Shown here: piece after piece, positions 7,538-64,000 of the stretch | How positions within the stretch are numbered: the first letter of the stretch is position 1 | Layout of the letters: every line of letters begins with the position of its first letter | Source: Escherichia coli | GTDB lineage: Bacteria; Pseudomonadota; Gammaproteobacteria; Enterobacterales; Enterobacteriaceae | Assembly (NCBI RefSeq): GCF_013315695.1 | Contig: NZ_CP054353.1 | Reading direction: 5' to 3' (one strand) | Length of the DNA: 64,000 nt | Notes under the pieces: generated by a model | Databases searched by the model: none | Seen by the model: only the letters and a program-made list of their open reading frames with translations | Told to the model about the DNA's origin: nothing | Made by a program: the position numbers and the translations under genes

Positions 7538-8194
7538 TTAACAATTTCTGGTCGTGCATAAAATCAGGAACTGGAGTGGTGACGTTACTATATCCAGCGT
7601 AAGAGTGACTGGTAGCAGCGCATTAGCGAGGCCGCGCGGAACGCCATCAGTTGCTTTGTACTTATAAAATCCCACCGTAAAGGGTTGATGGAAAACCATC
7701 ACGTTTGAGTAATCCGCTTTTTTATTTTTCTGGTGGATAGAGCCTTTCAGGCCGTCAAGTGCCCAGGTACAACGCTGGGTATTACAAATAAAACCATATT
7801 GTGTCGCCAGTGCTTTATCTTCCTCATTATCCCAGTCGTAATAGAGCGTTATTGAACCAGAAAAATTAGTATCACTGCTGCTTAAAATAAATTTCGCGTT
7901 ATCAGAAACGGTGATTCTTTCACCATGAATTGCCGGATCGTTTAGCATTTTAACCACCTCACCGCCGCCGGTGGTCAACAGATAGTCCAACGATTCACCA
8001 ACAAAAACATAGCCTTTCGTACCGTTACTATCTTCTGCCAGCGATAAACCCTTAATCGTGTCTGACCGCCATTGCTCGGCATGTGGACGGCTTGCAGTAT
8101 TGGAAACCAATCCCCAGGTGATACATCCGGTCAACGCAAATGCCAAAGAACACAAACCGGCAGCCTTAAAAAATCCCTTAAAATTCAACTTCAT
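7538..8194 (-). CDS. yidX: Predicted lipoprotein YidX, 218 aa
   Basis: ORF track 7538..8299 (253 aa); start trimmed to the internal ATG giving [24 protein letters not shown], a lipoprotein signal with lipobox LTGC. Confidence 0.8.
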
Positions 8195-8330
8195 GATTAA
8201 TCCTTTAAACGAGTAGCTAAGCCGTTGAAAGCATACTCTTCTTTCCCTCCTGTTTAGCGCCTGTTCTCCCTTTTCAGATTTCTGCCCGACGCATGTCATT
8301 TTTTATGCATTGTTCTTTTTGTGATCTAAA

Positions 8331-8364
8331 TTGTAGTACAACAGTATAATTTTGTACTACATTA
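8331..8364 (+). promoter_or_regulatory. dgo promoter/operator region with DgoR-type inverted repeats and a TATAAT -10 hexamer (8345..8350)
   Basis: TTGTAGTACAA and TTGTACTACA half-sites flank a perfect TATAAT about 110 bp upstream of dgoR; assignment to DgoR by position and established operon knowledge. Confidence 0.55.
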
Positions 8365-8470
8365 CGCACACGGCAAACGCGAACGTCATCACGCTGGTAC
8401 TACAAAGTTGCCGCGTTATGCATCGATCGGGGTAAAGTAGAGAAGAACATACAGAGCACAAGGACTCTCC

Positions 8471-9160
8471 ATGACTCTCAATAAAACCGATCGCATCGTT
8501 ATTACGCTGGGTAAACAGATCGTTCACGGCAAATACGTACCAGGCTCTCCACTTCCGGCTGAGGCGGAGCTCTGTGAAGAGTTTGCAACCTCGCGCAACA
8601 TCATCCGTGAGGTGTTCCGTTCGCTGATGGCGAAGCGGCTGATTGAAATGAAACGTTATCGCGGGGCGTTTGTGGCTCCGCGTAACCAGTGGAATTACCT
8701 CGACACTGACGTACTGCAATGGGTGCTGGAAAACGACTACGACCCACGGCTTATCAGTGCCATGAGCGAAGTGCGAAATCTGGTGGAACCGGCGATTGCC
8801 CGTTGGGCGGCAGAACGCGCGACTTCCAGCGATCTGGCGCAGATTGAATCGGCGCTGAACGAGATGATTGCCAACAATCAGGACCGCGAAGCGTTTAACG
8901 AAGCGGATATTCGCTACCACGAGGCGGTGCTGCAGTCGGTGCATAACCCGGTGTTACAGCAACTTAGCATTGCGATCAGTTCGCTGCAGCGGGCGGTTTT
9001 TGAACGAACCTGGATGGGCGATGAGGCCAACATGCCGCAAACGCTCCAGGAACATAAGGCGCTGTTCGATGCGATACGGCATCAGGACGGCGATGCGGCA
9101 GAGCAGGCGGCGCTTACCATGATAGCCAGCTCGACACGAAGGTTAAAGGAAATCACATGA
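8471..9160 (+). CDS. dgoR: GntR/FadR-family repressor of D-galactonate catabolism DgoR, 229 aa
   Basis: ORF track; N-terminal winged-helix region, first gene of the dgo operon. Confidence 0.93.
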   Translation: MTLNKTDRIVITLGKQIVHGKYVPGSPLPAEAELCEEFATSRNIIREVFRSLMAKRLIEMKRYRGAFVAPRNQWNYLDTDVLQWVLENDYDPRLISAMSEVRNLVEPAIARWAAERATSSDLAQIESALNEMIANNQDREAFNEADIRYHEAVLQSVHNPVLQQLSIAISSLQRAVFERTWMGDEANMPQTLQEHKALFDAIRHQDGDAAEQAALTMIASSTRRLKEIT

Positions 9161-10035
9161 CAGCTCGCTACATCGCAATTGACTGGGGATCGACCAATCT
9201 GCGCGCCTGGCTTTATCAGGGCGACCACTGCCTGGACAGCAGGCAATCAGAAGCAGGCGTCACGCGCCTGAACGGAAAATCTCCGGCTGCGGTGTTAGCA
9301 GAAGTGACGACCGACTGGCGTGAAGAGAATACGCCAGTGGTGATGGCAGGAATGGTCGGCAGCAATGTCGGCTGGAAAGTTGCGCCGTATTTATCTGTTC
9401 CTGCCCGTTTTTCATCTATTGGCGAACAATTAACGTCTGTTGGCGACAATATCTGGATTATTCCCGGATTATGCATCTCTCATGACGATAACCACAATGT
9501 GATGCGCGGCGAAGAAACACAATTGATCGGCGCGCGCACTTTGGCTCCTTCCTCTCTTTATGTTATGCCCGGAACCCATTGCAAATGGGTGCAGGCCGAT
9601 AGCCAGCAAATCAACGATTTTCGCACCGTAATGACCGGTGAATTACATCATTTACTGTTAAATCACTCATTGATTGGCGCAGGTTTGCCGCCGCAGGAAA
9701 ACTCTGCCGATGCCTTCGCGGCTGGCCTTGAGCGTGGCCTTAATGCGCCCGCCATATTGCCGCAGCTTTTTGAAGTTCGCGCCTCGCATGTGCTGGGAAC
9801 ACTTCTCCGCGAACAGGTCAGTGAATTTCTCTCTGGTTTGTTGATTGGCGCAGAGGTTGCCAGTATGCGCGACTATGTAACCCATCAACACGCCATCACC
9901 CTTGTCGCCGGAACATCGCTGACCGCGCGCTACCAGCAAGCCTTTCAGGCGATGGGGTGCGACGTGACGGCGGTGGCGGGCGACACGGCATTTCAGGCTG
10001 GTATAAGGAGCATCGCTCATGCAGTGGCAAACTAA
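9157..10035 (+). CDS. dgoK: 2-dehydro-3-deoxygalactonokinase DgoK, 292 aa
   Basis: ORF track; start overlaps dgoR stop (ATGA). Confidence 0.93.
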   Translation: MTARYIAIDWGSTNLRAWLYQGDHCLDSRQSEAGVTRLNGKSPAAVLAEVTTDWREENTPVVMAGMVGSNVGWKVAPYLSVPARFSSIGEQLTSVGDNIWIIPGLCISHDDNHNVMRGEETQLIGARTLAPSSLYVMPGTHCKWVQADSQQINDFRTVMTGELHHLLLNHSLIGAGLPPQENSADAFAAGLERGLNAPAILPQLFEVRASHVLGTLLREQVSEFLSGLLIGAEVASMRDYVTHQHAITLVAGTSLTARYQQAFQAMGCDVTAVAGDTAFQAGIRSIAHAVAN

Positions 10036-10636
10036 ACTCCCGCTGATCGCCATTTTGCGCGGCATTACGCCCGACGAGGCGCTGGCGCATGTTGGCGCGG
10101 TGATTGACGCTGGGTTCGACGCGGTAGAAATCCCGCTGAACTCTCCACTATGGGAACAAAGCATTCCCGCCATCGTTGATGCGCATGGCGACAAGGCGTT
10201 GATTGGCGCAGGTACGGTACTGAAACCTGAACAGGTCGATGCACTCGCCAGGATGGGCTGCCAGCTCATCGTTACGCCCAATATCCATAGTGAAGTGATC
10301 CGCCGTGCGGTGGGCTACGGCATGACCGTTTGCCCCGGCTGCGCGACGGCGACCGAAGCCTTTACCGCGCTCGACGCGGGCGCGCAGGCGCTGAAAATAT
10401 TTCCGTCATCGGCTTTTGGTCCGCAATACATCAAAGCGTTAAAAGCGGTATTACCACCGGACATCGCGGTCTTTGCCGTTGGCGGCGTGACGCCAGAAAA
10501 CCTGGCGCAGTGGATAGACGCAGGTTGTGCAGGGGCGGGCTTAGGCAGCGATCTCTATCGCGCCGGGCAATCCGTAGAACGCACCGCGCAGCAGGCAGCA
10601 GCATTTGTTAAGGCGTATCGAGAGGCAGTGCAATGA
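10019..10636 (+). CDS. dgoA: 2-dehydro-3-deoxy-6-phosphogalactonate aldolase DgoA, 205 aa
   Basis: ORF track; overlaps dgoK 3' end by 17 nt. Confidence 0.93.
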
Positions 10637-11589
10637 AAATCACCAAAATTACCACGTATCGTTTACCTCCCCGCTGGATGTTCCTGAAAATTGAAACCGA
10701 TGAAGGCGTGGTCGGCTGGGGCGAGCCCGTGATTGAAGGCCGCGCTCGCACTGTGGAAGCGGCAGTCCACGAGCTGAGTGACTATTTGATTGGTCAGGAC
10801 CCGTCACGCATCAACGACTTATGGCAAGTGATGTATCGCGCCGGATTTTATCGTGGCGGTCCGATTCTGATGAGTGCCATCGCCGGTATCGACCAGGCGT
10901 TATGGGATATCAAAGGCAAAGTGCTGAATGCGCCGGTGTGGCAACTGATGGGCGGCCTGGTTCGCGACAAAATTAAAGCCTACAGTTGGGTCGGCGGCGA
11001 TCGTCCGGCGGATGTTATCGACGGCATTAAAACCCTGCGCGAAATCGGCTTCGATACCTTCAAACTGAACGGTTGTGAAGAACTGGGGCTAATTGATAAC
11101 TCCCGCGCGGTAGATGCGGCAGTCAACACCGTGGCACAAATTCGTGAAGCCTTTGGCAATCAGATTGAGTTTGGTCTTGATTTCCACGGTCGCGTCAGCG
11201 CGCCGATGGCGAAAGTGCTGATTAAAGAACTGGAGCCGTATCGCCCGCTGTTTATTGAAGAGCCGGTGCTGGCGGAACAGGCCGAATACTACCCGAAACT
11301 GGCGGCACAAACACATATTCCTCTGGCGGCGGGTGAACGCATGTTCTCACGCTTCGATTTTAAACGCGTGCTGGAGGCGGGCGGTATTTCGATTCTGCAA
11401 CCAGATCTCTCTCATGCAGGCGGTATTACCGAATGCTACAAAATTGCCGGAATGGCAGAAGCCTATGACGTGACCCTTGCGCCGCACTGTCCGCTCGGAC
11501 CGATTGCACTGGCGGCTTGTCTGCATATCGACTTTGTTTCCTATAACGCCGTACTTCAGGAACAAAGTATGGGAATTCATTACAACAAA

Positions 11590-11598
11590 GGCGCGGAG
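11590..11598. repeat. IS1 target-site duplication, left copy (GGCGCGGAG)
   Basis: Identical 9-mer directly abuts both IS1 ends. Confidence 0.95.
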
Positions 11599-11653
11599 GG
11601 TGATGCTGCCAACTTACTGATTTAGTGTATGATGGTGTTTTTGAGGTGCTCCA

Positions 11654-11929
11654 GTGGCTTCTGTTTCTATCAGCTGTCCCTCCTGTTCAGCTACTGACGG
11701 GGTGGTGCGTAACGGCAAAAGCACCGCCGGACATCAGCGCTATCTCTGCTCTCACTGCCGTAAAACATGGCAACTGCAGTTCACTTACACCGCTTCTCAA
11801 CCCGGTACGCACCAGAAAATCATTGATATGGCCATGAATGGCGTTGGATGCCGGGCAACAGCCCGCATTATGGGCGTTGGCCTCAACACGATTTTACGTC
11901 ACTTAAAAAACTCAGGCCGCAGTCGGTAA
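11654..11929 (+). CDS. insA: IS1 InsA, 91 aa
   Basis: ORF track protein [39 protein letters not shown]..., recognised as IS1 InsA. Confidence 0.95.
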
Positions 11930-12351
11930 CCTCGCGCATACAGCCGGGCAGTGACGTCATCGTCTGCGCGGAAATGGACGAACAGTGGGGCTATGTCGGG
12001 GCTAAATCGCGCCAGCGCTGGCTGTTTTACGCGTATGACAGGCTCCGGAAGACGGTTGTTGCGCACGTATTCGGTGAACGCACTATGGCGACGCTGGGGC
12101 GTCTTATGAGCCTGCTGTCACCCTTTGACGTGGTGATATGGATGACGGATGGCTGGCCGCTGTATGAATCCCGCCTGAAGGGAAAGCTGCACGTAATCAG
12201 CAAGCGATATACGCAGCGAATTGAGCGGCATAACCTGAATCTGAGGCAGCACCTGGCACGGCTGGGACGGAAGTCGCTGTCGTTCTCAAAATCGGTGGAG
12301 CTGCATGACAAAGTCATCGGGCATTATCTGAACATAAAACACTATCAATAA
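11848..12351 (+). CDS. insB: IS1 InsB reading frame, 167 aa; expressed as the InsAB' transposase by -1 frameshift from insA
   Basis: ORF track 11848..12351 overlapping the insA 3' end in the -1 frame. Confidence 0.9.
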
Positions 12352-12366
12352 GTTGGAGTCATTACC

Positions 12367-12375
12367 GGCGCGGAG
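12367..12375. repeat. IS1 target-site duplication, right copy (GGCGCGGAG)
   Basis: Identical to 11590..11598. Confidence 0.95.
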
Positions 12376-12677
12376 TTACTCGACTTTGTGAAAAACAAAG
12401 AAGACTTCAGCATGGTTGGCGGCTTCTTTAAACCGCTAACGAAACCGGGCTTAGGCGTAGAAATCGACGAAGCTAAAGTTATTGAGTTCAGTAAAAATGC
12501 CCCGGACTGGCGTAATCCGCTCTGGCGTCATGAAGATAACAGCGTAGCAGAGTGGTAATTCCTGCCACGTAAGCCCCTCATCGGGCACTAAAACAGCAAT
12601 ACAAAAATATAACCCTCTGTAAATTACAGGGCATGGTGAGCGGCTTCGCTATGCCCAAAATCTGGAGAAAGCTCGCT

Positions 12678-13970
12678 ATGGATATTCCCGTTAATGCAGC
12701 AAAGCCGGGGCGTCGGCGTTATCTGACGCTGGTGATGATCTTTATTACGGTGGTCATTTGTTATGTTGACCGCGCTAACCTGGCCGTGGCTTCCGCCCAT
12801 ATTCAGGAAGAGTTCGGTATTACCAAAGCGGAAATGGGCTATGTATTTTCGGCCTTCGCCTGGCTTTATACGCTATGTCAGATCCCCGGTGGTTGGTTTT
12901 TAGATCGCGTAGGTTCACGCGTGACTTATTTTATTGCGATATTTGGCTGGTCAGTGGCGACGTTATTCCAGGGCTTTGCCACGGGATTAATGTCATTAAT
13001 TGGTCTGCGCGCGATAACCGGTATTTTCGAAGCGCCCGCTTTCCCGACCAATAACCGGATGGTGACCAGTTGGTTCCCGGAACATGAACGTGCTTCTGCC
13101 GTTGGTTTTTATACGTCTGGTCAGTTTGTCGGTCTGGCGTTTCTGACTCCGCTGCTGATCTGGATTCAGGAGATGTTGAGCTGGCACTGGGTGTTCATCG
13201 TCACCGGTGGTATCGGCATTATCTGGTCGCTGATTTGGTTTAAGGTTTATCAGCCGCCGCGCCTGACTAAAGGCATCAGCAAAGCTGAACTGGATTACAT
13301 TCGTGATGGCGGCGGTCTGGTGGATGGCGATGCGCCGGTGAAAAAAGAGGCGCGTCAGCCGTTAACAGCCAAAGACTGGAAACTGGTGTTCCATCGTAAA
13401 CTGATCGGTGTCTATCTTGGGCAATTTGCGGTGGCTTCTACACTGTGGTTTTTCTTAACCTGGTTCCCGAACTATTTAACCCAGGAAAAAGGAATCACGG
13501 CGCTGAAAGCAGGCTTTATGACCACGGTGCCGTTCCTCGCGGCGTTTATTGGCGTCCTGCTCTCTGGCTGGGTCGCGGATCTGCTGGTACGTAAGGGCTT
13601 TTCACTGGGCTTTGCGCGTAAAACGCCGATTATCTGCGGCTTGCTGATCTCCACCTGCATTATGGGCGCTAACTACACTAACGATCCGATGATGATTATG
13701 TGCCTGATGGCGCTGGCATTCTTCGGCAACGGTTTTGCTTCGATTACCTGGTCGCTGGTTTCTTCTCTGGCACCGATGCGCCTGATTGGTTTAACCGGCG
13801 GCGTGTTTAACTTTGCCGGTGGTCTGGGCGGCATCACTGTTCCGCTGGTGGTGGGGTACCTGGCGCAGGGTTACGGTTTCGCACCTGCACTGGTTTATAT
13901 CTCCGCCGTTGCGTTGATTGGCGCGCTCTCTTACATCCTGCTGGTGGGCGATGTGAAGCGCGTTGGCTAA
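12678..13970 (+). CDS. dgoT: D-galactonate:H+ symporter DgoT (MFS), 430 aa
   Basis: ORF track 12633..13970; start placed at the ATG giving [22 protein letters not shown]. Confidence 0.9.
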
Positions 13971-15031
13971 TCTTTCAACTGTGGAATATGCGCCACACCA
14001 CTGCGCATAATCCACTTTCTTAAAGCTGGTGCGGTCAGGCATCGGCTTTTTACTATTTTGCCGAAGAGTTTTAAACGCAGTTTGCGGGTGGCGCGCCAGT
14101 AGGCGGCGTTGCTCTTCTCCGGCTGCTTCAGTAACACCGAACGCAGAATCTCTGCGCTATCCAGCGCATAGCTAATCCCCTCCAGCGAACTGGCGCTGAT
14201 AAATCCCGCCGCTTCACCAATCAGAAAGGCGTTGTCCTTACCGCAGACAAAATCCTGCCAGCGTGAGGGAAACAGCACGGTACATTTCTCGCTTTTCACC
14301 GCTTTACCAAACTGGAACTGAAAGGCGTTCATTTTCTCTTTCAGCGTCGTGAAACGCGTCTGACCGTCTTTCATGGGATAGGCACCGCCAAAGATAAAAT
14401 AACCGTCTTTGCTGATACTCCATGAGTAACAGTCAGTTATCGCATTATCAAAGATGCAGGAGTAGAACGGCACCGGATGTTTCTCTGCGAACCACTGCTG
14501 GATAGCGACATATTTACGAATTTGATGATCCGGGTAGAGATGTCGCCGCACCATCGAGTTTGCGCCATCGGCACCGACCAGATAGCGGGCAGTAATATGC
14601 TGCTCCCAACCGTCTGCACGAAAAATGACATGCCATTTATCATCCTCACGCCAGATTTTTCGGCACAGGCTGTCGTGGTAAACCTCAACGCTGGCGGGGA
14701 TCAGCGATTTCATCCACAAGTCGAAAGCATGGCGATTAATATTGATATAGCTTCGCTGGTAGTTACGCGTGAGCGATGCGGCGACGTCGACAGTTTTGAC
14801 GCTGAAAATCTGTGGATTGGCGATCACATCGACAGGAAGCGTCAGTCCATCGCGAATAAAAGATCGCTGCGCGTCCGGTGCCAGCAGACCGCCGCAGGGT
14901 TTGCTGAAACCTTCAGTACCACACTGGTGCTTTTTATCCAGCGCGATCACCTGCATTTTGCTGGCTAACGTTCGTGCCAACACCGACCCTGCCGGGCCGA
15001 GGCCAATAATCGCCACGTCGAAATGTTCCAT
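13967..15031 (-). CDS. cbrA: FAD-dependent oxidoreductase CbrA (colicin E2 tolerance), 354 aa
   Basis: ORF track 13967..15052; start at the ATG giving [16 protein letters not shown] (FAD-binding GxGxxG). Confidence 0.88.
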
Positions 15032-15095
15032 CTTTTCACTCACATTCATCACGATGGCGAAAGACTATTGTCTGAAAGTGAAGTCCTTGTGAAGT

Positions 15096-16346
15096 ATGAT
15101 GGCGGGACCCGTTTTGTATCAGGACCGCGCCATGAAACAGATAACCTTTGCTCCCCGTAATCACCTGCTCACCAATACCAATACCTGGACGCCCGACAGC
15201 CAGTGGCTGGTATTTGACGTGCGTCCTTCTGGCGCGTCGTTTACCGGCGAGACCATTGAGCGTGTGAATATCCATACCGGCGAGGTCGAGGTTATCTATC
15301 GCGCGTCACAGGGCGCGTACGTTGGCGTGGTGACCGTTCATCCGAAGTCAGAGAAATATGTTTTCATCCACGGCCCGGAAAATCCTGATGAAACATGGTA
15401 TTACGACTTTCATCATCGGCGTGGAGTGATTGTTGAAGGCGGCAAGGTGAGCAATCTCGATGCAATGGATATTACCGCGCCGTACACCCCAGGAGCACTG
15501 CGCGGCGGCAGCCATGTGCATGTCTTTAGCCCGAACGGTGAAAGGGTGAGCTTTACCTATAACGACCATGTAATGCATCAACTCGATTCGGCGCTGGATT
15601 TGCGAAACGTCGGCGTGGCTGCACCGTTTGGCCCGGTCAACGTACAAAAGCAGCATCCGCGTGAATACAGCGGTAGCCACTGGTGCGTGCTGGTGAGTAA
15701 AACCACGCCCACGCCGCAGCCTGGCAGCGATGAAATCAATCGTGCTTATGAAGAAGGATGGGTAGGAAATCACGCGCTGGCGTTTATTGGCGACACACTT
15801 TCGCCAAAGGGCGAGAAAGTGCCGGAGCTATTTATCGTTGAGTTACCGCAAGATGAAGCTGGCTGGAAAGCGGCAGGTGATGCGCCGTTAAGTGGAACGG
15901 AAACAACCCTGCCCGCGCCACCGCGCGGCGTCGTGCAGCGACGTTTAACCTTTACCCACCATCGGGCTTATCCGGGGTTAGTCAACGTCCCGCGCCACTG
16001 GGTGCGCTGTAATCCGCAGGGTACGCAAATCGCGTTTTTAATGCGTGATGATAACGGCATTGTGCAACTGTGGCTTATCTCGCCACAGGGCGGCGAGCCG
16101 CGCCAGTTAACCCATAACAAAACGGATATTCAGTCTGCATTTAACTGGCATCCGTCAGGAGAATGGTTGGGCTTTGTGCTGGATAATCGAATTGCTTGCG
16201 CCCATGCGCAAAGCGGCGAGGTTGAGTATTTAACCGAAAACCACGCCAATCCACCTTCTGCGGACGCCGTGGTCTTCTCGCCGGATGGTCAATGGCTGGC
16301 GTGGATGGAAGGCGGCCAGCTGTGGATCACCGAAACTGATCGCTAA
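15096..16346 (+). CDS. yidR: Conserved beta-propeller-like protein YidR, about 415 aa
   Basis: ORF track; two adjacent ATG codons at 15096 and 15099, exact start uncertain. Confidence 0.85.
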   Translation: MMAGPVLYQDRAMKQITFAPRNHLLTNTNTWTPDSQWLVFDVRPSGASFTGETIERVNIHTGEVEVIYRASQGAYVGVVTVHPKSEKYVFIHGPENPDETWYYDFHHRRGVIVEGGKVSNLDAMDITAPYTPGALRGGSHVHVFSPNGERVSFTYNDHVMHQLDSALDLRNVGVAAPFGPVNVQKQHPREYSGSHWCVLVSKTTPTPQPGSDEINRAYEEGWVGNHALAFIGDTLSPKGEKVPELFIVELPQDEAGWKAAGDAPLSGTETTLPAPPRGVVQRRLTFTHHRAYPGLVNVPRHWVRCNPQGTQIAFLMRDDNGIVQLWLISPQGGEPRQLTHNKTDIQSAFNWHPSGEWLGFVLDNRIACAHAQSGEVEYLTENHANPPSADAVVFSPDGQWLAWMEGGQLWITETDR

Positions 16347-19796: not shown

Positions 19797-20237
19797 CTCT
19801 TTTCCGGGTGGAGTCGCCGTAAATGGTACTCCACCTGGTATTCGCTGGCATTTCTGAACATTACTGAATAATTCAAAAACTCCCCGCTCTCGCTATATGA
19901 CAACGAGGTGATCCGCAGCAGTGGCGTGTGTTCCGCTACCTTCATTTGCCGCGCCAGCAGTCTATCGGCGAGCACCAGCGTCAGGCTTTCATAATTACCG
20001 CCAATCAGAATCCCGCACTCTTGTTCAATATATTCAAACTTCGACCCTTCCAGATGTTGCAGCGAAAGGTTACGGAACAGTTTTACCGGCATATAGCTGT
20101 CTTCCAGCATCAGCGGTTTCCCTTCCACAAAACGAACGCGACGGGAGAAGTAGATCTGCTCGTTGATTTGAATCCGTAACTGGCTGGCAATGGCCGGAGG
20201 CGCAGGCATGATTTCAAAAATCAGCACCTGGCTGGTG
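19793..20237 (-). pseudogene. yidP: 5'-truncated yidP (GntR-family regulator): only the C-terminal ~148 codons (effector/UTRA-type domain) remain
   Basis: Reading frame is open from the IS4 boundary at 20237 to the stop at 19793 with no ATG at its 5' end; the N-terminal HTH-encoding part is absent from the window. Confidence 0.8.
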
Positions 20238-20255
20238 TAATGCCGATCAGTTAAG
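20238..20255. repeat. IS4 left terminal inverted repeat
   Basis: TAATGCCGATCAGTTAAG matches the reverse complement of the right end in 16 of 18 positions. Confidence 0.85.
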
Positions 20256-20321
20256 GATCAGTTGACCGATCCAGTGGCTGTGTAAGAATCCGGAAACGCT
20301 CACTTGTTTCCGGATTTTTTT

Positions 20322-21650
20322 ATGCACATTGGACAGGCTCTTGATCTGGTATCCCGTTACGATTCTCTGCGTAACCCACTGACTTCTCTGGGGGATTACC
20401 TCGACCCCGAACTCATCTCTCGTTGCCTTGCCGAATCAGGTACTGTAACGCTACGCAAGCGCCGTCTTCCCCTCGAAATGATGGTCTGGTGTATTGTTGG
20501 CATGGCGCTTGAGCGTAAAGAACCTCTTCACCAGATTGTGAATCGCCTGGACATCATGCTGCCGGGCAATCGCCCCTTCGTTGCCCCCAGTGCCGTTATT
20601 CAGGCCCGCCAGCGCCTGGGAAGTGAGGCTGTCCGCCGCGTGTTCACGAAAACAGCGCAGCTCTGGCATAACGCCACGCCGCATCCGCACTGGTGCGGCC
20701 TGACCCTGCTGGCCATCGATGGTGTGTTCTGGCGCACACCGGATACACCAGAGAACGATGCAGCCTTCCCCCGCCAGACACATGCCGGGAACCCGGCGCT
20801 CTACCCGCAGGTCAAAATGGTCTGCCAGATGGAACTGACCAGCCATCTGCTGACGGCTGCAGCCTTCGGCACGATGAAGAACAGCGAAAATGAGCTTGCT
20901 GAGCAACTTATAGAACAAACCGGCGATAACACTCTGACGTTAATGGATAAAGGTTATTACTCACTGGGACTGTTAAATGCCTGGAGCCTGGCGGGAGAAC
21001 ACCGCCACTGGATGATACCTCTCAGAAAGGGAGCGCAATATGAAGAGATCAGAAAACTGGGTAAAGGCGATCATCTGGTGAAGCTGAAAACCAGCCCGCA
21101 GGCACGAAAAAAGTGGCCGGGACTGGGAAATGAAGTGACAGCCCGCCTGCTGACCGTGACGCGCAAAGGAAAAGTCTGCCATCTGCTGACGTCGATGACG
21201 GACGCCATGCGCTTCCCCGGAGGAGAAATGGCGGATCTGTACAGTCATCGCTGGGAAATCGAACTGGGATACAGGGAGATAAAACAGACGATGCAACTGA
21301 GCAGGCTGACGCTGAGAAGTAAAAAACCGGAGCTTGTGGAGCAAGAGCTGTGGGGTGTCTTACTGGCTTATAATCTGGTGAGATATCAGATGATTAAAAT
21401 GGCGGAACATCTGAAAGGTTACTGGCCGAATCAACTGAGTTTCTCAGAATCATGCGGAATGGTGATGAGAATGCTGATGACATTGCAGGGCGCTTCACCG
21501 GGACGTATACCGGAGCTGATGCGCGATCTTGCAAGTATGGGACAACTTGTGAAATTACCGACAAGAAGGGAAAGGGCCTTCCCGAGAGTGGTAAAGGAGA
21601 GGCCCTGGAAATACCCCACAGCCCCGAAAAAGAGCCAGTCAGTTGCTTAA
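20322..21650 (+). CDS. insG: IS4 transposase, 442 aa
   Basis: ORF track 20304..21650; start at the ATG giving [24 protein letters not shown], recognised as the IS4 transposase. Confidence 0.92.
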
Positions 21651-21663
21651 CTGACTGGCATTA
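21646..21663. repeat. IS4 right terminal inverted repeat
   Basis: Reverse complement TAATGCCAGTCAGTTAAG. Confidence 0.85.
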
Positions 21664-56770: not shown

Positions 56771-58030
56771 ATGAATCTTACCGAATTAAAGAATACGCCG
56801 GTTTCTGAGCTGATCACTCTCGGCGAAAATATGGGGCTGGAAAACCTGGCTCGTATGCGTAAGCAGGACATTATTTTTGCCATCCTGAAGCAGCACGCAA
56901 AGAGTGGCGAAGATATCTTTGGTGATGGCGTACTGGAGATATTGCAGGATGGATTTGGTTTCCTCCGTTCCGCAGACAGCTCCTACCTCGCCGGTCCTGA
57001 TGACATCTACGTTTCCCCTAGCCAAATCCGCCGTTTCAACCTCCGCACTGGTGATACCATCTCTGGTAAGATTCGCCCGCCGAAAGAAGGTGAACGCTAT
57101 TTTGCGCTGCTGAAAGTTAACGAAGTTAACTTCGACAAACCTGAAAACGCCCGCAACAAAATCCTCTTTGAGAACTTAACCCCGCTGCACGCAAACTCTC
57201 GTCTGCGTATGGAACGTGGTAACGGTTCTACGGAAGATTTAACCGCTCGCGTACTGGATCTGGCATCACCTATCGGTCGTGGTCAGCGTGGTCTGATTGT
57301 GGCACCGCCGAAAGCCGGTAAAACCATGCTGCTGCAGAACATTGCTCAGAGCATTGCTTACAACCACCCGGATTGCGTACTGATGGTTCTGCTGATCGAC
57401 GAACGTCCGGAAGAAGTAACCGAGATGCAGCGTCTGGTTAAAGGTGAAGTTGTTGCTTCTACCTTTGACGAACCCGCATCTCGCCACGTTCAGGTTGCGG
57501 AAATGGTGATCGAGAAGGCGAAACGCCTGGTTGAGCACAAGAAAGACGTTATCATTCTGCTCGACTCCATCACTCGTCTGGCGCGCGCTTACAACACCGT
57601 TGTTCCGGCGTCAGGTAAAGTGTTGACCGGTGGTGTGGACGCCAACGCCCTGCATCGTCCGAAACGCTTCTTCGGTGCGGCGCGTAACGTGGAAGAGGGC
57701 GGCAGCCTGACCATTATCGCGACGGCGCTTATCGATACCGGTTCTAAAATGGACGAAGTTATCTACGAAGAGTTTAAAGGTACAGGCAACATGGAACTGC
57801 ACCTCTCTCGTAAGATCGCTGAAAAACGCGTCTTCCCGGCTATCGACTACAACCGTTCCGGTACCCGTAAAGAAGAGCTGCTCACGACTCAGGAAGAACT
57901 GCAGAAAATGTGGATCCTGCGCAAAATCATTCACCCGATGGGCGAAATCGATGCAATGGAATTCCTCATTAATAAACTGGCAATGACCAAGACCAATGAC
58001 GATTTCTTCGAAATGATGAAACGTTCATAA
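56771..58030 (+). CDS. rho: Transcription termination factor Rho, 419 aa
   Basis: ORF track 56699..58030; start at the ATG giving [40 protein letters not shown]. Confidence 0.97.
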
Positions 58031-58045
58031 ATTTGTCTTATGCCA

Positions 58046-58078
58046 AAAACGCCACGTGTTTACGTGGCGTTTTGCTTT
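58046..58078 (+). terminator. Rho-independent terminator downstream of rho
   Basis: AAAACGCCACGTGTTTACGTGGCGTTTT hairpin plus T-rich tail. Confidence 0.8.
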
Positions 58079-58269
58079 TATATCTGTAATCTTAATGCCG
58101 CGCTGGCGATGCTAGGAAAATTCCTGGAATTTGCTGGTGTGTTATGCAATTTGCATATCAAATGGTTAATTTTTGCACAGGACTGGTGGGTTCGGAACGG
58201 ACTTTCCCTTCTGAATAAAGGTCTTCGTGGTTATACTTCTGCTAATAATTTTCTCTGAGAGCATGCATT

Positions 58270-59373
58270 GTGAATTTACTGACAGTGAGTACTGATCTCA
58301 TCAGTATTTTTTTATTCACGACACTGTTTCTGTTTTTTGCCCGTAAGGTGGCAAAAAAAGTCGGTTTAGTGGATAAACCAAACTTCCGCAAACGTCACCA
58401 GGGATTGATACCTCTCGTTGGGGGGATTTCGGTTTACGCAGGGATTTGCTTCACGTTCGGAATTGTCGATTACTATATTCCGCATGCATCTCTCTATCTC
58501 GCTTGTGCCGGTGTGCTTGTTTTCATTGGCGCGCTGGATGACCGTTTTGATATCAGCGTAAAAATCCGTGCCACCATACAGGCCGCTGTTGGCATTGTTA
58601 TGATGGTGTTCGGCAAACTTTATCTCAGTAGCCTGGGTTATATCTTTGGCTCCTGGGAGATGGTGCTCGGACCGTTTGGTTACTTCCTGACGCTATTTGC
58701 CGTCTGGGCGGCAATTAATGCGTTCAACATGGTTGATGGCATTGATGGCTTGCTGGGCGGGTTGTCCTGCGTCTCGTTTGCAGCAATCGGTATGATTTTG
58801 TGGTTCGACGGGCAAACCAGTCTCGCAATCTGGTGCTTTGCGATGATCGCCGCCATCCTGCCATACATCATGCTTAACCTTGGTATCCTGGGTCGCCGCT
58901 ACAAAGTCTTTATGGGGGATGCGGGCAGTACGCTGATTGGTTTTACCGTTATCTGGATCCTGCTCGAAACGACCCAGGGCAAAACTCATCCCATCAGCCC
59001 GGTTACCGCTTTGTGGATAATCGCCATTCCACTAATGGATATGGTGGCGATTATGTACCGTCGCCTGCGTAAAGGCATGAGCCCATTCTCTCCTGACCGT
59101 CAGCATATTCACCATTTGATCATGCGTGCCGGGTTTACTTCCCGCCAGGCGTTTGTGCTGATTACCCTTGCCGCAGCACTGCTCGCTTCCATTGGCGTGC
59201 TGGCAGAATATTCTCATTTTGTCCCGGAGTGGGTCATGCTGGTGCTCTTTTTGCTAGCATTCTTCCTCTATGGATATTGCATCAAGCGTGCCTGGAAAGT
59301 TGCTCGCTTTATTAAGCGCGTAAAACGCAGACTGCGTAGAAATCGTGGTGGCAGCCCCAATTTAACCAAATAA
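58270..59373 (+). CDS. wecA: UDP-GlcNAc:undecaprenyl-phosphate GlcNAc-1-phosphate transferase WecA (Rfe), 367 aa, GTG start
   Basis: ORF track; polytopic membrane protein with MraY/WecA family motifs (NAFNMVDGIDGL). Confidence 0.95.
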   Translation: MNLLTVSTDLISIFLFTTLFLFFARKVAKKVGLVDKPNFRKRHQGLIPLVGGISVYAGICFTFGIVDYYIPHASLYLACAGVLVFIGALDDRFDISVKIRATIQAAVGIVMMVFGKLYLSSLGYIFGSWEMVLGPFGYFLTLFAVWAAINAFNMVDGIDGLLGGLSCVSFAAIGMILWFDGQTSLAIWCFAMIAAILPYIMLNLGILGRRYKVFMGDAGSTLIGFTVIWILLETTQGKTHPISPVTALWIIAIPLMDMVAIMYRRLRKGMSPFSPDRQHIHHLIMRAGFTSRQAFVLITLAAALLASIGVLAEYSHFVPEWVMLVLFLLAFFLYGYCIKRAWKVARFIKRVKRRLRRNRGGSPNLTK

Positions 59374-59384
59374 ATGAGGATGTG

Positions 59385-60431
59385 ATGACACAACCAATGC
59401 CTGGGAAACCGGCCGAAGACGCTGAAAATGAACTGGATATTCGTGGGTTGTTTCGTACCTTGTGGGCTGGGAAGCTGTGGATTATTGGCATGGGGCTGGC
59501 GTTTGCGTTAATCGCGCTGGCGTATACTTTTTTTGCTCGCCAGGAGTGGAGCTCGACAGCGATTACCGATCGTCCAACGGTGAATATGCTGGGGGGATAT
59601 TACTCACAGCAGCAATTTTTGCGTAACCTGGATGTCCGTTCAAACATGGCTTCTGCCGACCAACCATCGGTCATGGACGAAGCCTATAAAGAGTTTGTTA
59701 TGCAACTGGCCTCGTGGGATACCCGCAGAGAGTTCTGGCTGCAAACCGACTATTACAAGCAGCGGATGGTGGGCAACAGCAAAGCAGATGCGGCGTTGCT
59801 GGATGAAATGATCAACAACATCGTGTTTATTCCCGGTGACTTCACCCGCGCGGTCAATGACAGCGTGAAGCTGATTGCCGAAACTGCGCCTGACGCTAAT
59901 AACCTGTTACGTCAGTATGTTGCTTTTGCCAGCCAGCGTGCAGCCAGCCATCTGAATGATGAGCTGAAAGGCGCATGGGCGGCACGCACCATCCAGATGA
60001 AAGCTCAGGTGAAGCGTCAGGAAGAGGTGGCGAAAGCCATCTACGATCGCCGGATGAACAGTATTGAACAGGCGCTGAAAATTGCTGAGCAGCATAATAT
60101 TTCGCGCAGTGCGACAGATGTGCCTGCCGAGGAATTACCTGATTCAGAAATGTTCCTGCTTGGGCGTCCAATGCTCCAGGCTCGACTGGAAAATTTACAG
60201 GCCGTCGGTCCGGCCTTTGATCTCGACTATGATCAGAATCGGGCCATGTTAAACACCCTGAATGTTGGTCCAACCCTGGATCCGCGTTTTCAGACCTATC
60301 GCTATTTGCGTACGCCGGAAGAACCGGTAAAACGCGATAGCCCACGTCGTGCCTTCCTGATGATTATGTGGGGCATTGTCGGGGGGCTGATCGGGGCTGG
60401 TGTCGCATTAACCCGCCGTTGCTCGAAATAG
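59385..60431 (+). CDS. wzzE: ECA polysaccharide chain-length modulator WzzE, 348 aa
   Basis: ORF track 59382..60431; start at the ATG giving [23 protein letters not shown]. Confidence 0.93.
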
Positions 60432-60486
60432 CAACACTGCTGCGGCGAGCGCAAAGGCGCTCGCCGCTTATTCGAAGAGAATCGAT

Positions 60487-61617
60487 GTGAAAGTACTGAC
60501 TGTATTTGGTACGCGCCCGGAAGCCATCAAGATGGCTCCGTTGGTGCATGCGTTGGCAAAAGATCCTTTTTTTGAGGCTAAAGTTTGCGTCACTGCGCAG
60601 CATCGGGAGATGCTCGATCAGGTGCTGAAACTCTTTTCCATTGTACCTGACTACGATCTCAACATAATGCAGCCAGGACAGGGCCTGACAGAGATAACCT
60701 GTCGGATTCTGGAAGGGCTAAAACCTATTCTTGCCGAGTTCAAACCAGACGTCGTGCTGGTTCACGGCGATACTACTACAACGCTGGCAACCAGCCTGGC
60801 GGCGTTTTATCAGCGTATTCCAGTTGGTCACGTTGAGGCAGGTCTGCGCACGGGCGATCTCTATTCGCCGTGGCCGGAAGAGGCTAACCGTACATTGACC
60901 GGGCATCTGGCGATGTATCACTTCTCTCCAACCGAAACTTCCCGGCAAAACTTACTGCGTGAAAACGTTGCTGACAGCCGAATCTTCATTACCGGTAATA
61001 CTGTCATCGATGCACTGTTATGGGTGCGTGACCAGGTGATGAGCAGCGACACGCTGCGTTCAGAACTGGCGGCAAATTACCCGTTTATCGACCCCGATAA
61101 AAAGATGATTCTGGTGACCGGTCACAGGCGTGAGAGCTTCGGTCGTGGCTTTGAAAAAATCTGCCAGGCGCTGGCAGACATCGCCACCACGCACCAGGAC
61201 ATCCAGATTGTCTATCCGGTGCATCTCAACCCGAACGTCAGAGAGCCGGTCAATCGCATTCTGGGGCATGTGAAAAATGTCATTCTGATCGATCCCCAGG
61301 AGTATTTACCGTTTGTCTGGCTGATGAACCACGCCTGGCTGATTTTGACCGACTCAGGCGGCATTCAGGAAGAAGCGCCTTCGCTGGGGAAACCGGTGCT
61401 GGTGATGCGCGATACCACTGAGCGTCCGGAAGCGGTGACAGCGGGGACGGTGCGTCTGGTCGGCACGGATAAGCAGCGAATTGTCGAGGAAGTGACGCGT
61501 CTTTTAAAAGACGAAAACGAATATCAAGCTATGAGCCGCGCCCATAACCCGTATGGTGATGGTCAGGCATGCTCTCGCATTCTGGAAGCGTTAAAAAATA
61601 ATCGGATATCACTATGA
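60487..61617 (+). CDS. wecB: UDP-N-acetylglucosamine 2-epimerase WecB (RffE), 376 aa, GTG start
   Basis: ORF track; [23 protein letters not shown]. Confidence 0.95.
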
Positions 61618-62876
61618 GTTTTGCGACCATTTCTGTTATCGGACTGGGTTACATCGGGCTGCCTACAGCAGCTGCGTTTGCCTCAAGGCAAAAACAGGTG
61701 ATTGGTGTCGATATCAACCAACACGCGGTTGATACCATCAATCGTGGCGAAATCCATATCGTCGAGCCTGATTTGGCGAGCGTAGTAAAAACTGCCGTAG
61801 AAGGCGGTTTTTTACGAGCGAGCACGACGCCAGTTGAAGCGGATGCCTGGCTGATTGCTGTACCCACGCCGTTTAAAGGCGATCATGAGCCAGATATGAC
61901 CTACGTTGAATCGGCTGCTCGCTCCATTGCGCCAGTGCTGAAAAAAGGCGCGCTGGTGATCCTTGAATCCACCTCGCCGGTGGGGTCAACCGAGAAGATG
62001 GCAGAATGGTTAGCAGAGATGCGTCCAGATCTCACTTTCCCACAGCAGGTGGGCGAGTTGGCGGACGTCAACATTGCTTACTGCCCGGAACGCGTGTTAC
62101 CGGGCCAGGTTATGGTTGAGCTGATTAAAAACGATCGCGTGATTGGTGGTATGACACCGGTTTGTTCGGCCCGCGCCAGCGAACTGTACAAAATTTTCCT
62201 CGAAGGTGAGTGTGTCGTCACTAACTCGCGGACGGCGGAAATGTGTAAGCTCACCGAAAACAGCTTCCGCGATGTGAATATCGCTTTTGCTAACGAACTG
62301 TCGCTGATTTGTGCCGATCAGGGAATTAACGTCTGGGAACTGATTCGCCTGGCGAATCGTCACCCTCGCGTTAATATTCTTCAGCCTGGTCCTGGCGTGG
62401 GCGGTCACTGCATTGCTGTTGATCCGTGGTTTATCGTGGCACAGAACCCGCAGCAGGCGCGGCTTATCCGTACCGCGCGCGAAGTGAACGATCACAAACC
62501 GTTCTGGGTTATCGATCAGGTGAAAGCGGCGGTTGCCGACTGCCTTGCTGCTACCGATAAACGCGCCAGTGAACTGAAAATCGCCTGCTTTGGTCTGGCG
62601 TTTAAACCGAATATTGATGACCTGCGCGAAAGCCCGGCGATGGAAATCGCTGAACTGATCGCCCAGTGGCATAGCGGCGAAACGCTGGTTGTTGAGCCTA
62701 ACATCCACCAGTTGCCGAAAAAACTGACCGGGCTTTGTACTCTGGCGCAGCTTGACGAGGCGCTGGCAACGGCAGATGTGCTGGTGATGTTGGTCGATCA
62801 TAGTCAGTTCAAGGTTATCAATGGCGACAACGTCCATCAGCAGTATGTCGTCGATGCCAAAGGAGTCTGGCGCTGA
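61614..62876 (+). CDS. wecC: UDP-N-acetyl-D-mannosamine dehydrogenase WecC (RffD), 420 aa
   Basis: ORF track; N-terminal Rossmann fold ([18 protein letters not shown]); start overlaps wecB stop. Confidence 0.95.
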
Positions 62877-63943
62877 TGAGAAAGATTCTGATAACAGGTG
62901 GTGCCGGGTTTATTGGCTCAGCGCTGGTGCGTTATATCATCAACGAAACGAGCGACGCGGTGATAGTGGTCGATAAGCTGACCTACGCCGGAAATCTGAT
63001 GTCGCTGGCACCGGTCGCGCAAAGCGAGCGCTTTGCCTTTGAGAAAGTTGATATCTGCGATCGGGCAGAACTGGCGCGCGTATTCACTGAGCATCAGCCA
63101 GACTGTGTCATGCATCTGGCAGCCGAAAGCCATGTTGACCGTTCTATTGACGGCCCGGCAGCGTTTATTGAAACCAACATTGTCGGGACTTATACATTGC
63201 TTGAAGCGGCGCGGACTTACTGGAATGCGCTGACGGAAGATAAAAAATCAGCGTTCCGTTTTCATCATATCTCCACCGACGAAGTATATGGTGACCTGCA
63301 CTCGACGGATGATTTCTTCACCGAAACCACGCCGTATGCGCCGAGCAGCCCTTATTCCGCTTCAAAAGCCAGCAGTGACCATCTGGTACGCGCCTGGCTG
63401 CGGACCTATGGTCTGCCGACGCTTATCACCAACTGCTCGAATAACTACGGCCCTTACCACTTTCCGGAAAAACTGATCCCGCTGATGATCCTCAACGCGC
63501 TGGCGGGTAAACCGCTGCCGGTATATGGCAACGGGCAGCAAATCCGTGACTGGCTGTATGTTGAAGATCACGCCCGCGCGCTGTATTGCGTGGCGACCAC
63601 CGGGAAAGTCGGTGAAACCTATAATATTGGTGGTCACAACGAGCGTAAGAATCTCGATGTTGTGGAAACCATTTGCGAGCTGCTGGAAGAACTGGCTCCG
63701 AATAAGCCGCACGGCGTGGCGCACTATCGTGACCTGATCACCTTTGTCGCTGACCGTCCGGGGCATGATCTGCGTTATGCCATTGATGCTTCGAAAATTG
63801 CCCGTGAACTTGGCTGGCTGCCGCAGGAAACCTTTGAAAGTGGAATGCGTAAAACGGTGCAGTGGTATCTGGCTAATGAAATCTGGTGGAAGCAGGTGCA
63901 GGACGGCAGCTATCAGGGCGAGCGTTTAGGTCTGAAAGGCTAA
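62876..63943 (+). CDS. rffG: dTDP-glucose 4,6-dehydratase RffG, 355 aa
   Basis: ORF track; [22 protein letters not shown] (NAD-binding GxxGxxG). Confidence 0.95.
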
Positions 63944-63961
63944 TTTTCAGCGGAGGCAGAC

Positions 63962-64000
63962 ATGAAAGGTATTATCCTGGCGGGCGGTTCCGGCACCCGA
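63962..64000 (+). CDS. rffH: Glucose-1-phosphate thymidylyltransferase RffH, 5' end only (runs off the window)
   Basis: ATG at 63962 followed by MKGIILAGGSGTR. Confidence 0.85.
   Translation, partial: MKGIILAGGSGTR

Follow-up and report, generated by a model that had tools for sequence, protein, structure and literature searches.

The classical genetics of the gal and lac operons established that IS1 insertions exert strong polarity in either orientation and that rho mutations relieve it. The element further possesses a promoter of its own, which is weak and repressed by InsA. Hybrid promoters formed by IS1 were reportedly described by Prentki and co-workers in 1986. The inverted repeat of IS1 carries an outward-directed -35 sequence that is able to seed such hybrid promoters (PMC8764528), and their formation is documented (PMC8764528, PMC9330008). 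In E. coli ST131, transcription of a gene downstream of a co-oriented IS1 element increased only if a good -10 sequence was present at the correct spacing; where such a -10 sequence was missing, expression of osmB was lowered about 4-fold and that of ugd was unchanged (PMC8764528).

The first gene of the dgo operon, dgoR, encodes the regulator of the whole operon (PMC7674646, PMC12288454), and two DgoR-binding inverted repeats overlap the dgo promoter (PMC12288454). In Salmonella Typhimurium LT2, the DgoR-controlled dgoRKAT operon contains a natural dgoD pseudogene upstream of an intact dgoT; the lesion is a -1 frameshift without inserted DNA, and dgoT is inducible (PMC3573128). A dgoT::MudK fusion in LT2 was silent unless dgoR was deleted or DgoR was counteracted (PMC3573128), which speaks against a constitutive promoter for dgoT within the operon, at least in LT2. 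Our literature search returned nothing relevant on an internal promoter or transcription start of dgoT, nor on the combination of dgoD and IS1, i.e. on the allele described here.

The 64-kb window analyzed in this work is the stretch from base 1 to base 64000 of NZ_LR898874.1, the chromosome of E. coli MSB1_4I, which was isolated in Australia from a human rectal swab. Its dgoD gene is interrupted by IS1. The allele resembles the classical polar gal and lac mutations of K-12 in several respects: the element is nearly the same (767 of 768 bases are identical to IS1A of K-12 strain MG1655), it is flanked by a 9-bp target duplication, the operon is a catabolic one whose disrupted structural gene is promoter-proximal, and the distal gene, itself intact, relies on the upstream promoter. 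In contrast to the classical mutants, dgoD::IS1 is a natural allele of clinical isolates and its polarity is predicted. Moreover, dgoD encodes the first catabolic enzyme, so that no pathway is left for the distal transporter to supply. As in LT2, a natural dgoD pseudogene precedes an intact dgoT in an operon under DgoR control; the additional 768 bp of IS1 set the locus apart. With afaA::IS1 of ST131 it shares the outward -35-like hexamer, located 8 nt from the end of IS1 in both cases; unlike afaA::IS1, it lacks an acceptable -10 sequence at a distance of 16-18 bp and thus resembles the osmB and ugd cases, in which no activation occurred (PMC8764528).

A complete IS1 element splits dgoD

The order of the genes is dgoR-dgoK-dgoA-dgoD-dgoT, and the DgoR operators lie upstream of dgoR; the annotation and a motif search are in line with what a preliminary description of this DNA had assumed. 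According to RefSeq, dgoR, dgoK, and dgoA (8471-10636, + strand) are all intact and are followed by a dgoD pseudogene that lacks the C-terminus, an IS1A-family transposase with programmed frameshift, a galactonate dehydratase fragment that lacks the N-terminus, dgoT, and finally cbrA on the opposite strand. After removal of IS1, the operon is 97.3% identical to that of MG1655 at the nucleotide level over 5.2 kb. Three inverted repeats that resemble DgoR operators lie in the dgo promoter region (8331-8405, + strand), at 8331-8341, 8352-8362, and 8395-8405, along with a -10 hexamer TATAAT at 8345-8350. In a weight-matrix scan, the dgo promoter reached 9.8 bits, which is the best value of the region. 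Allowing for at most one mismatch, the operator motif TTGTANTACAA occurs in the whole window only at 8331, 8352, and 8395, all upstream of dgoR.

IS1 occupies positions 11599-12366 (+ strand) and is oriented like the dgo operon. It is bounded by imperfect terminal inverted repeats (GGTGATGCTGCCAACTTACTGAT / GGTAATGACTCCAACTTATTGAT) of the approximately 23 bp that characterize the IS1 family, and by a target site duplication whose left copy (11590-11598) and right copy (12367-12375) form a perfect direct repeat of the 9-bp sequence GGCGCGGAG. Deleting IS1 and one GGCGCGGAG copy in silico restored a DgoD protein of 382 amino acids that differs from the MG1655 enzyme in one residue. The boundaries, the target duplication, and the RefSeq annotation agree in placing 768 bp of IS1 between dgoT and the only recognizable dgo promoter, as had been proposed. 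The segment to which that proposal referred, 12367-13970, consists of the dgoD 3' remnant, a spacer, and dgoT; IS1 is located just upstream of it. The structure is already contained in the RefSeq annotation, and the event is an ordinary IS insertion of a known kind.

No further IS1 copy is present in the window. The insA gene (11654-11929, + strand) starts with GTG and codes for 91 amino acids, in which the Pfam domains PF03811 and PF12759 were found. An A6C motif for a -1 frameshift is located at 11905-11911, and the insB' frame (11911-12351) is read only after this frameshift. The frameshifted translation is open to 12351 and yields an intact InsAB' transposase of 232 amino acids. Considering the single-base divergence from IS1A, the intact insA, the A6C motif, and the open InsAB' frame, the copy inserted into dgoD looks like an active one. 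In the left inverted repeat, a promoter scan identified an inward promoter (11606-11633, + strand; CTGCCA-16-TATGAT, 9/12 match) that points toward insA and dgoT and that we take to be PIRL. The right inverted repeat contains the outward -35-like hexamer TTGGAG at 12353-12358 (+ strand).

The 5' part of dgoD (10633-11598, + strand) comprises codons 1-322. The reading frame continues with eight IS1-encoded codons and terminates at the stop codon TAG at 11623-11625. Codons 323-382 form the 3' remnant (12376-12558, + strand), which has no start signal of its own. In the intact DgoD, the Pfam domain MR_MLE_C spans residues 134-355; the truncation removes the end of this domain together with the C-terminal tail. 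Because the end of this enolase-superfamily C-terminal domain is lost, the truncated galactonate dehydratase is very probably inactive. A second copy of dgoD-dgoT was not detected on the MSB1_4I chromosome, where the locus was found at one place in the record. Due to the truncation of dgoD, the galactonate pathway is broken irrespective of what happens to dgoT; this is the main point, and the preliminary description understated it.

dgoT is intact but lacks recognizable transcription signals of its own

The claim that dgoT is intact holds: the gene (12678-13970, + strand) encodes an MFS D-galactonate:H+ symporter of 430 amino acids (Pfam MFS_1, E = 6e-66), whose sole difference from the MG1655 protein is the conservative exchange V291I. 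Its start is located 311 nt downstream of the end of IS1. RefSeq places the start at ATG 12633, which gives a protein of 445 residues. The K-12 start at ATG 12678 looks more plausible, because it is preceded by the Shine-Dalgarno sequence GGAG (12664-12667) at a distance of 10 nt, whereas ATG 12633 lies within the stem of a hairpin and has no Shine-Dalgarno sequence.

The spacer between dgoD and dgoT (12559-12677, + strand) is identical to that of MG1655 in all 119 nucleotides. Just upstream of the dgoT Shine-Dalgarno sequence, it contains a strong hairpin of 12 bp (GGGCAUGGUGAG-CGGC-UUCGCUAUGCCC, 12629-12656). This hairpin was dismissed as an intrinsic terminator, as no U-tract follows; it may be an mRNA-stabilizing or processing element. 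Rfam gave no match to an RNA element of the spacer or the operon over 8000-15200 at E ≤ 1. A further palindrome of the spacer, CTGTA-AAT-TACAG, was rejected as a DgoR operator upstream of dgoT on account of its wrong spacing, and a search that allowed up to two mismatches likewise found no TTGTANTACAA from the end of IS1 to dgoT. Altogether, the search of 12559-12677 for a promoter, a DgoR operator, or an intrinsic terminator revealed none.

The preliminary description had also considered a hybrid promoter at the right end of IS1. The sequence speaks against it: the hexamers that follow TTGGAG at 16, 17, and 18 bp are GTTACT, TTACTC, and TACTCG, and none of them is a usable -10. The combined -35/-10 scores are 1.9, -1.1, and -0.5 bits and thus do not exceed 1.9 bits, compared to 9.8 bits for the dgo promoter. 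In a lenient weight-matrix scan, the best promoter-like site in 12250-12700 reached 5.5 bits, which is less than the median best value of 7.0 bits per 450-nt stretch of the window. When 8200-14200 was searched with a strict consensus, no promoter-like site emerged between the right end of IS1 and dgoT; these are in silico scans, in which a missing consensus match does not prove the absence of a promoter. The absence of recognizable promoter and operator signals is, like the structure of IS1, a direct observation, and it argues against the creation of a new promoter by the insertion.

Polarity is the favored explanation for the fate of dgoT

IS1 would now reside within a single DgoR-controlled dgoRKADT transcription unit, transcription of which would begin upstream of dgoR. 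The dgo transcripts would shed their ribosomes at the stop codon 27 nt into IS1, and ribosomes could briefly reload on insA (GTG 11654) up to position 11929. The following stretch of about 748 nt (11930-12677) would be translated only by rare frameshifted ribosomes, none of which would proceed past 12351. Rho-dependent premature termination would then strongly reduce transcription of dgoT, though probably not to zero; the residual transcription would consist of DgoR-controlled read-through and a trickle from the InsA-repressed IS1 promoter. Given the untranslated stretch and the classical polarity of IS1, a reduced transcription of dgoT is expected. Some read-through is expected as well, since no intrinsic terminator was found within IS1 on the + (operon) strand. 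On balance, we regard it as fairly probable that the insertion is polar and leaves dgoT markedly under-expressed, with the remaining transcription under the control of DgoR; polarity was one of the two outcomes that the preliminary description had considered.

A lowered expression of dgoT and its dependence on Rho are the likelier outcome on the grounds of what is classically known about IS1. A crude C/G scan gave C/G ratios of 0.6-0.95 across 11924-12340 in insB', which corresponds to a weak rut-like signal; a typical or clear Rho loading region, rich in C and poor in G, was not seen there. C-rich windows were found at 11716-11820 within insA and at 12548-12625 in the native spacer region. 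As the scan is unconvincing, the polarity reading draws on classical knowledge rather than on the scan. The regulated expression of dgoT in LT2 despite a frameshifted dgoD further shows that polarity is incomplete if only the translation of dgoD is lost.

A different outcome would be that dgoT is essentially unaffected, either due to efficient read-through of IS1 or due to an unmapped promoter in the 3' end of dgoD or in the spacer. The weak rut-like signal in insB' and the missing + strand terminator in IS1 would fit efficient read-through. The spacer of 119 nt is unusually long for this operon, its complete identity to K-12 exceeds the 97.3% of the operon, and the strong hairpin could mark a processed or separately stabilized dgoT mRNA. 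However, the stretch 12250-12700 offers neither a promoter-like sequence nor a DgoR operator, and the galactonate-inducible promoter was reportedly located by Singh et al. in 2019 only in the sequence upstream of dgoR. The Salmonella dgoT fusion was likewise silent without derepression (PMC3573128). We consider an unaffected dgoT unlikely.

Still less probable is an IS-driven expression, in which either a hybrid promoter at the right end of IS1 or the element's own promoter would make dgoT independent of DgoR and galactonate uptake constitutive. The inward promoter at 11606-11633 does face dgoT, with no intrinsic terminator behind it on the + strand. However, the own promoter of IS1 is weak and repressed by InsA, which the at least 40 IS1 left-end matches of the genome supply, and its transcripts would have to traverse the untranslated insB' region, too. 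As for a hybrid promoter, the outward hexamer at 12353-12358 is in place and precedents are documented (PMC8764528, PMC9330008), but activation demands a correctly placed -10 (PMC8764528), and the low-scoring hexamers at 16-18 bp do not provide one. A more far-reaching version, which strikes us as quite improbable, holds that the insertion has rewired dgoT: a low, IS1-dependent and InsA-modulated transcription would keep the transporter independent of DgoR, and dgoD::IS1 could be adaptive. If this were true, the transporter could serve to import another substrate or to sense galactonate in a lineage that is unable to catabolize it, and the allele could be of advantage in an IS1-rich clone that is present on two continents.

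Among complete genomes, the insertion is confined to one IS1-expanded lineage

Among 5426 complete E. coli genomes, IS1 is present at the dgoD site in two, MSB1_4I and AF3 (NZ_OZ547117.1), the latter from a blood culture in the UK. The empty site was found in 5013 other genomes, many of which match it without a difference over 600 bp; the query was covered to at least 80% by 5015 of the 5426 genomes, a number that includes MSB1_4I and AF3 as two joined pieces. MSB1_4I and AF3 differ in one base across the 1.4 kb that span the insertion and are near-identical over 21.7 kb, which indicates that the insertion was inherited and is not recurrent. The allele is best explained by a simple transposition of IS1 into dgoD at codon 322/323, which one lineage inherited. 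The single difference is a T>C exchange at 12345 in the right inverted repeat of IS1, synonymous in insB'; it could stem from a sequencing difference or from gene conversion by a further copy of IS1. AF3 is the only close relative in the set of complete genomes; the next best genome is at most 98.5% identical over 20 kb. Several genomes, one of which is named ST648, contain an empty site that is 100% identical over 600 bp; their wider region is not identical. Both MSB1_4I and AF3 have at least 40 IS1 matches, compared to a median of 10 places per genome, and thus represent an IS1-expanded lineage.

Two unrelated genomes, NZ_LR881940.1 and NZ_CP144928.1, also carry IS1 in the dgo operon of natural isolates and in the same orientation. 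In contrast to dgoD::IS1, these are independent insertions near the 5' end of dgoT that destroy the transporter. In one of the two (NZ_CP144928.1, 4408-6137, or NZ_LR881940.1, 4408-6522), an adjacent deletion joins the locus to a fragment of a TRAP-transporter gene. Furthermore, a megablast search with the dgoD-dgoT junction segment gave no match in 407 of the 5426 complete genomes, suggesting that a considerable minority of strains lacks the dgo locus. Taken together with the two IS1 insertions in dgoT, this means that damage to the dgo operon is not rare.

Two other regions of the window deserve mention. An IS4 element at 20237-21663 splits a gene for a GntR-family regulator beside a pair of genes for a PTS IIB component and a 6-phospho-alpha-glucosidase; this is a second IS-disrupted sugar-utilization locus within 10 kb of dgo. 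The other is a type III secretion region of the ETT2 type at 57256-64000. It includes eilA as well as genes for IpaD/SipD-like, YopB/SseC-like, and SycD-like proteins, and adjoins iatC, a large inverse autotransporter gene.

Consequences for galactonate utilization

As the first catabolic step is missing and no second copy of dgoD-dgoT was detected on its chromosome, MSB1_4I should fail to grow on D-galactonate whatever dgoT does. MSB1_4I and AF3 are both predicted to be unable to grow on this gut-relevant sugar acid and to take it up poorly. The effect on dgoT is secondary, since it would alter only the uptake of an inducer that can no longer be metabolized. In a broader context, dgoD::IS1 matters little: its predicted effect is textbook knowledge and opens no long-standing question. 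It is a further example of how IS1 erodes catabolic operons in an IS1-rich clinical lineage.
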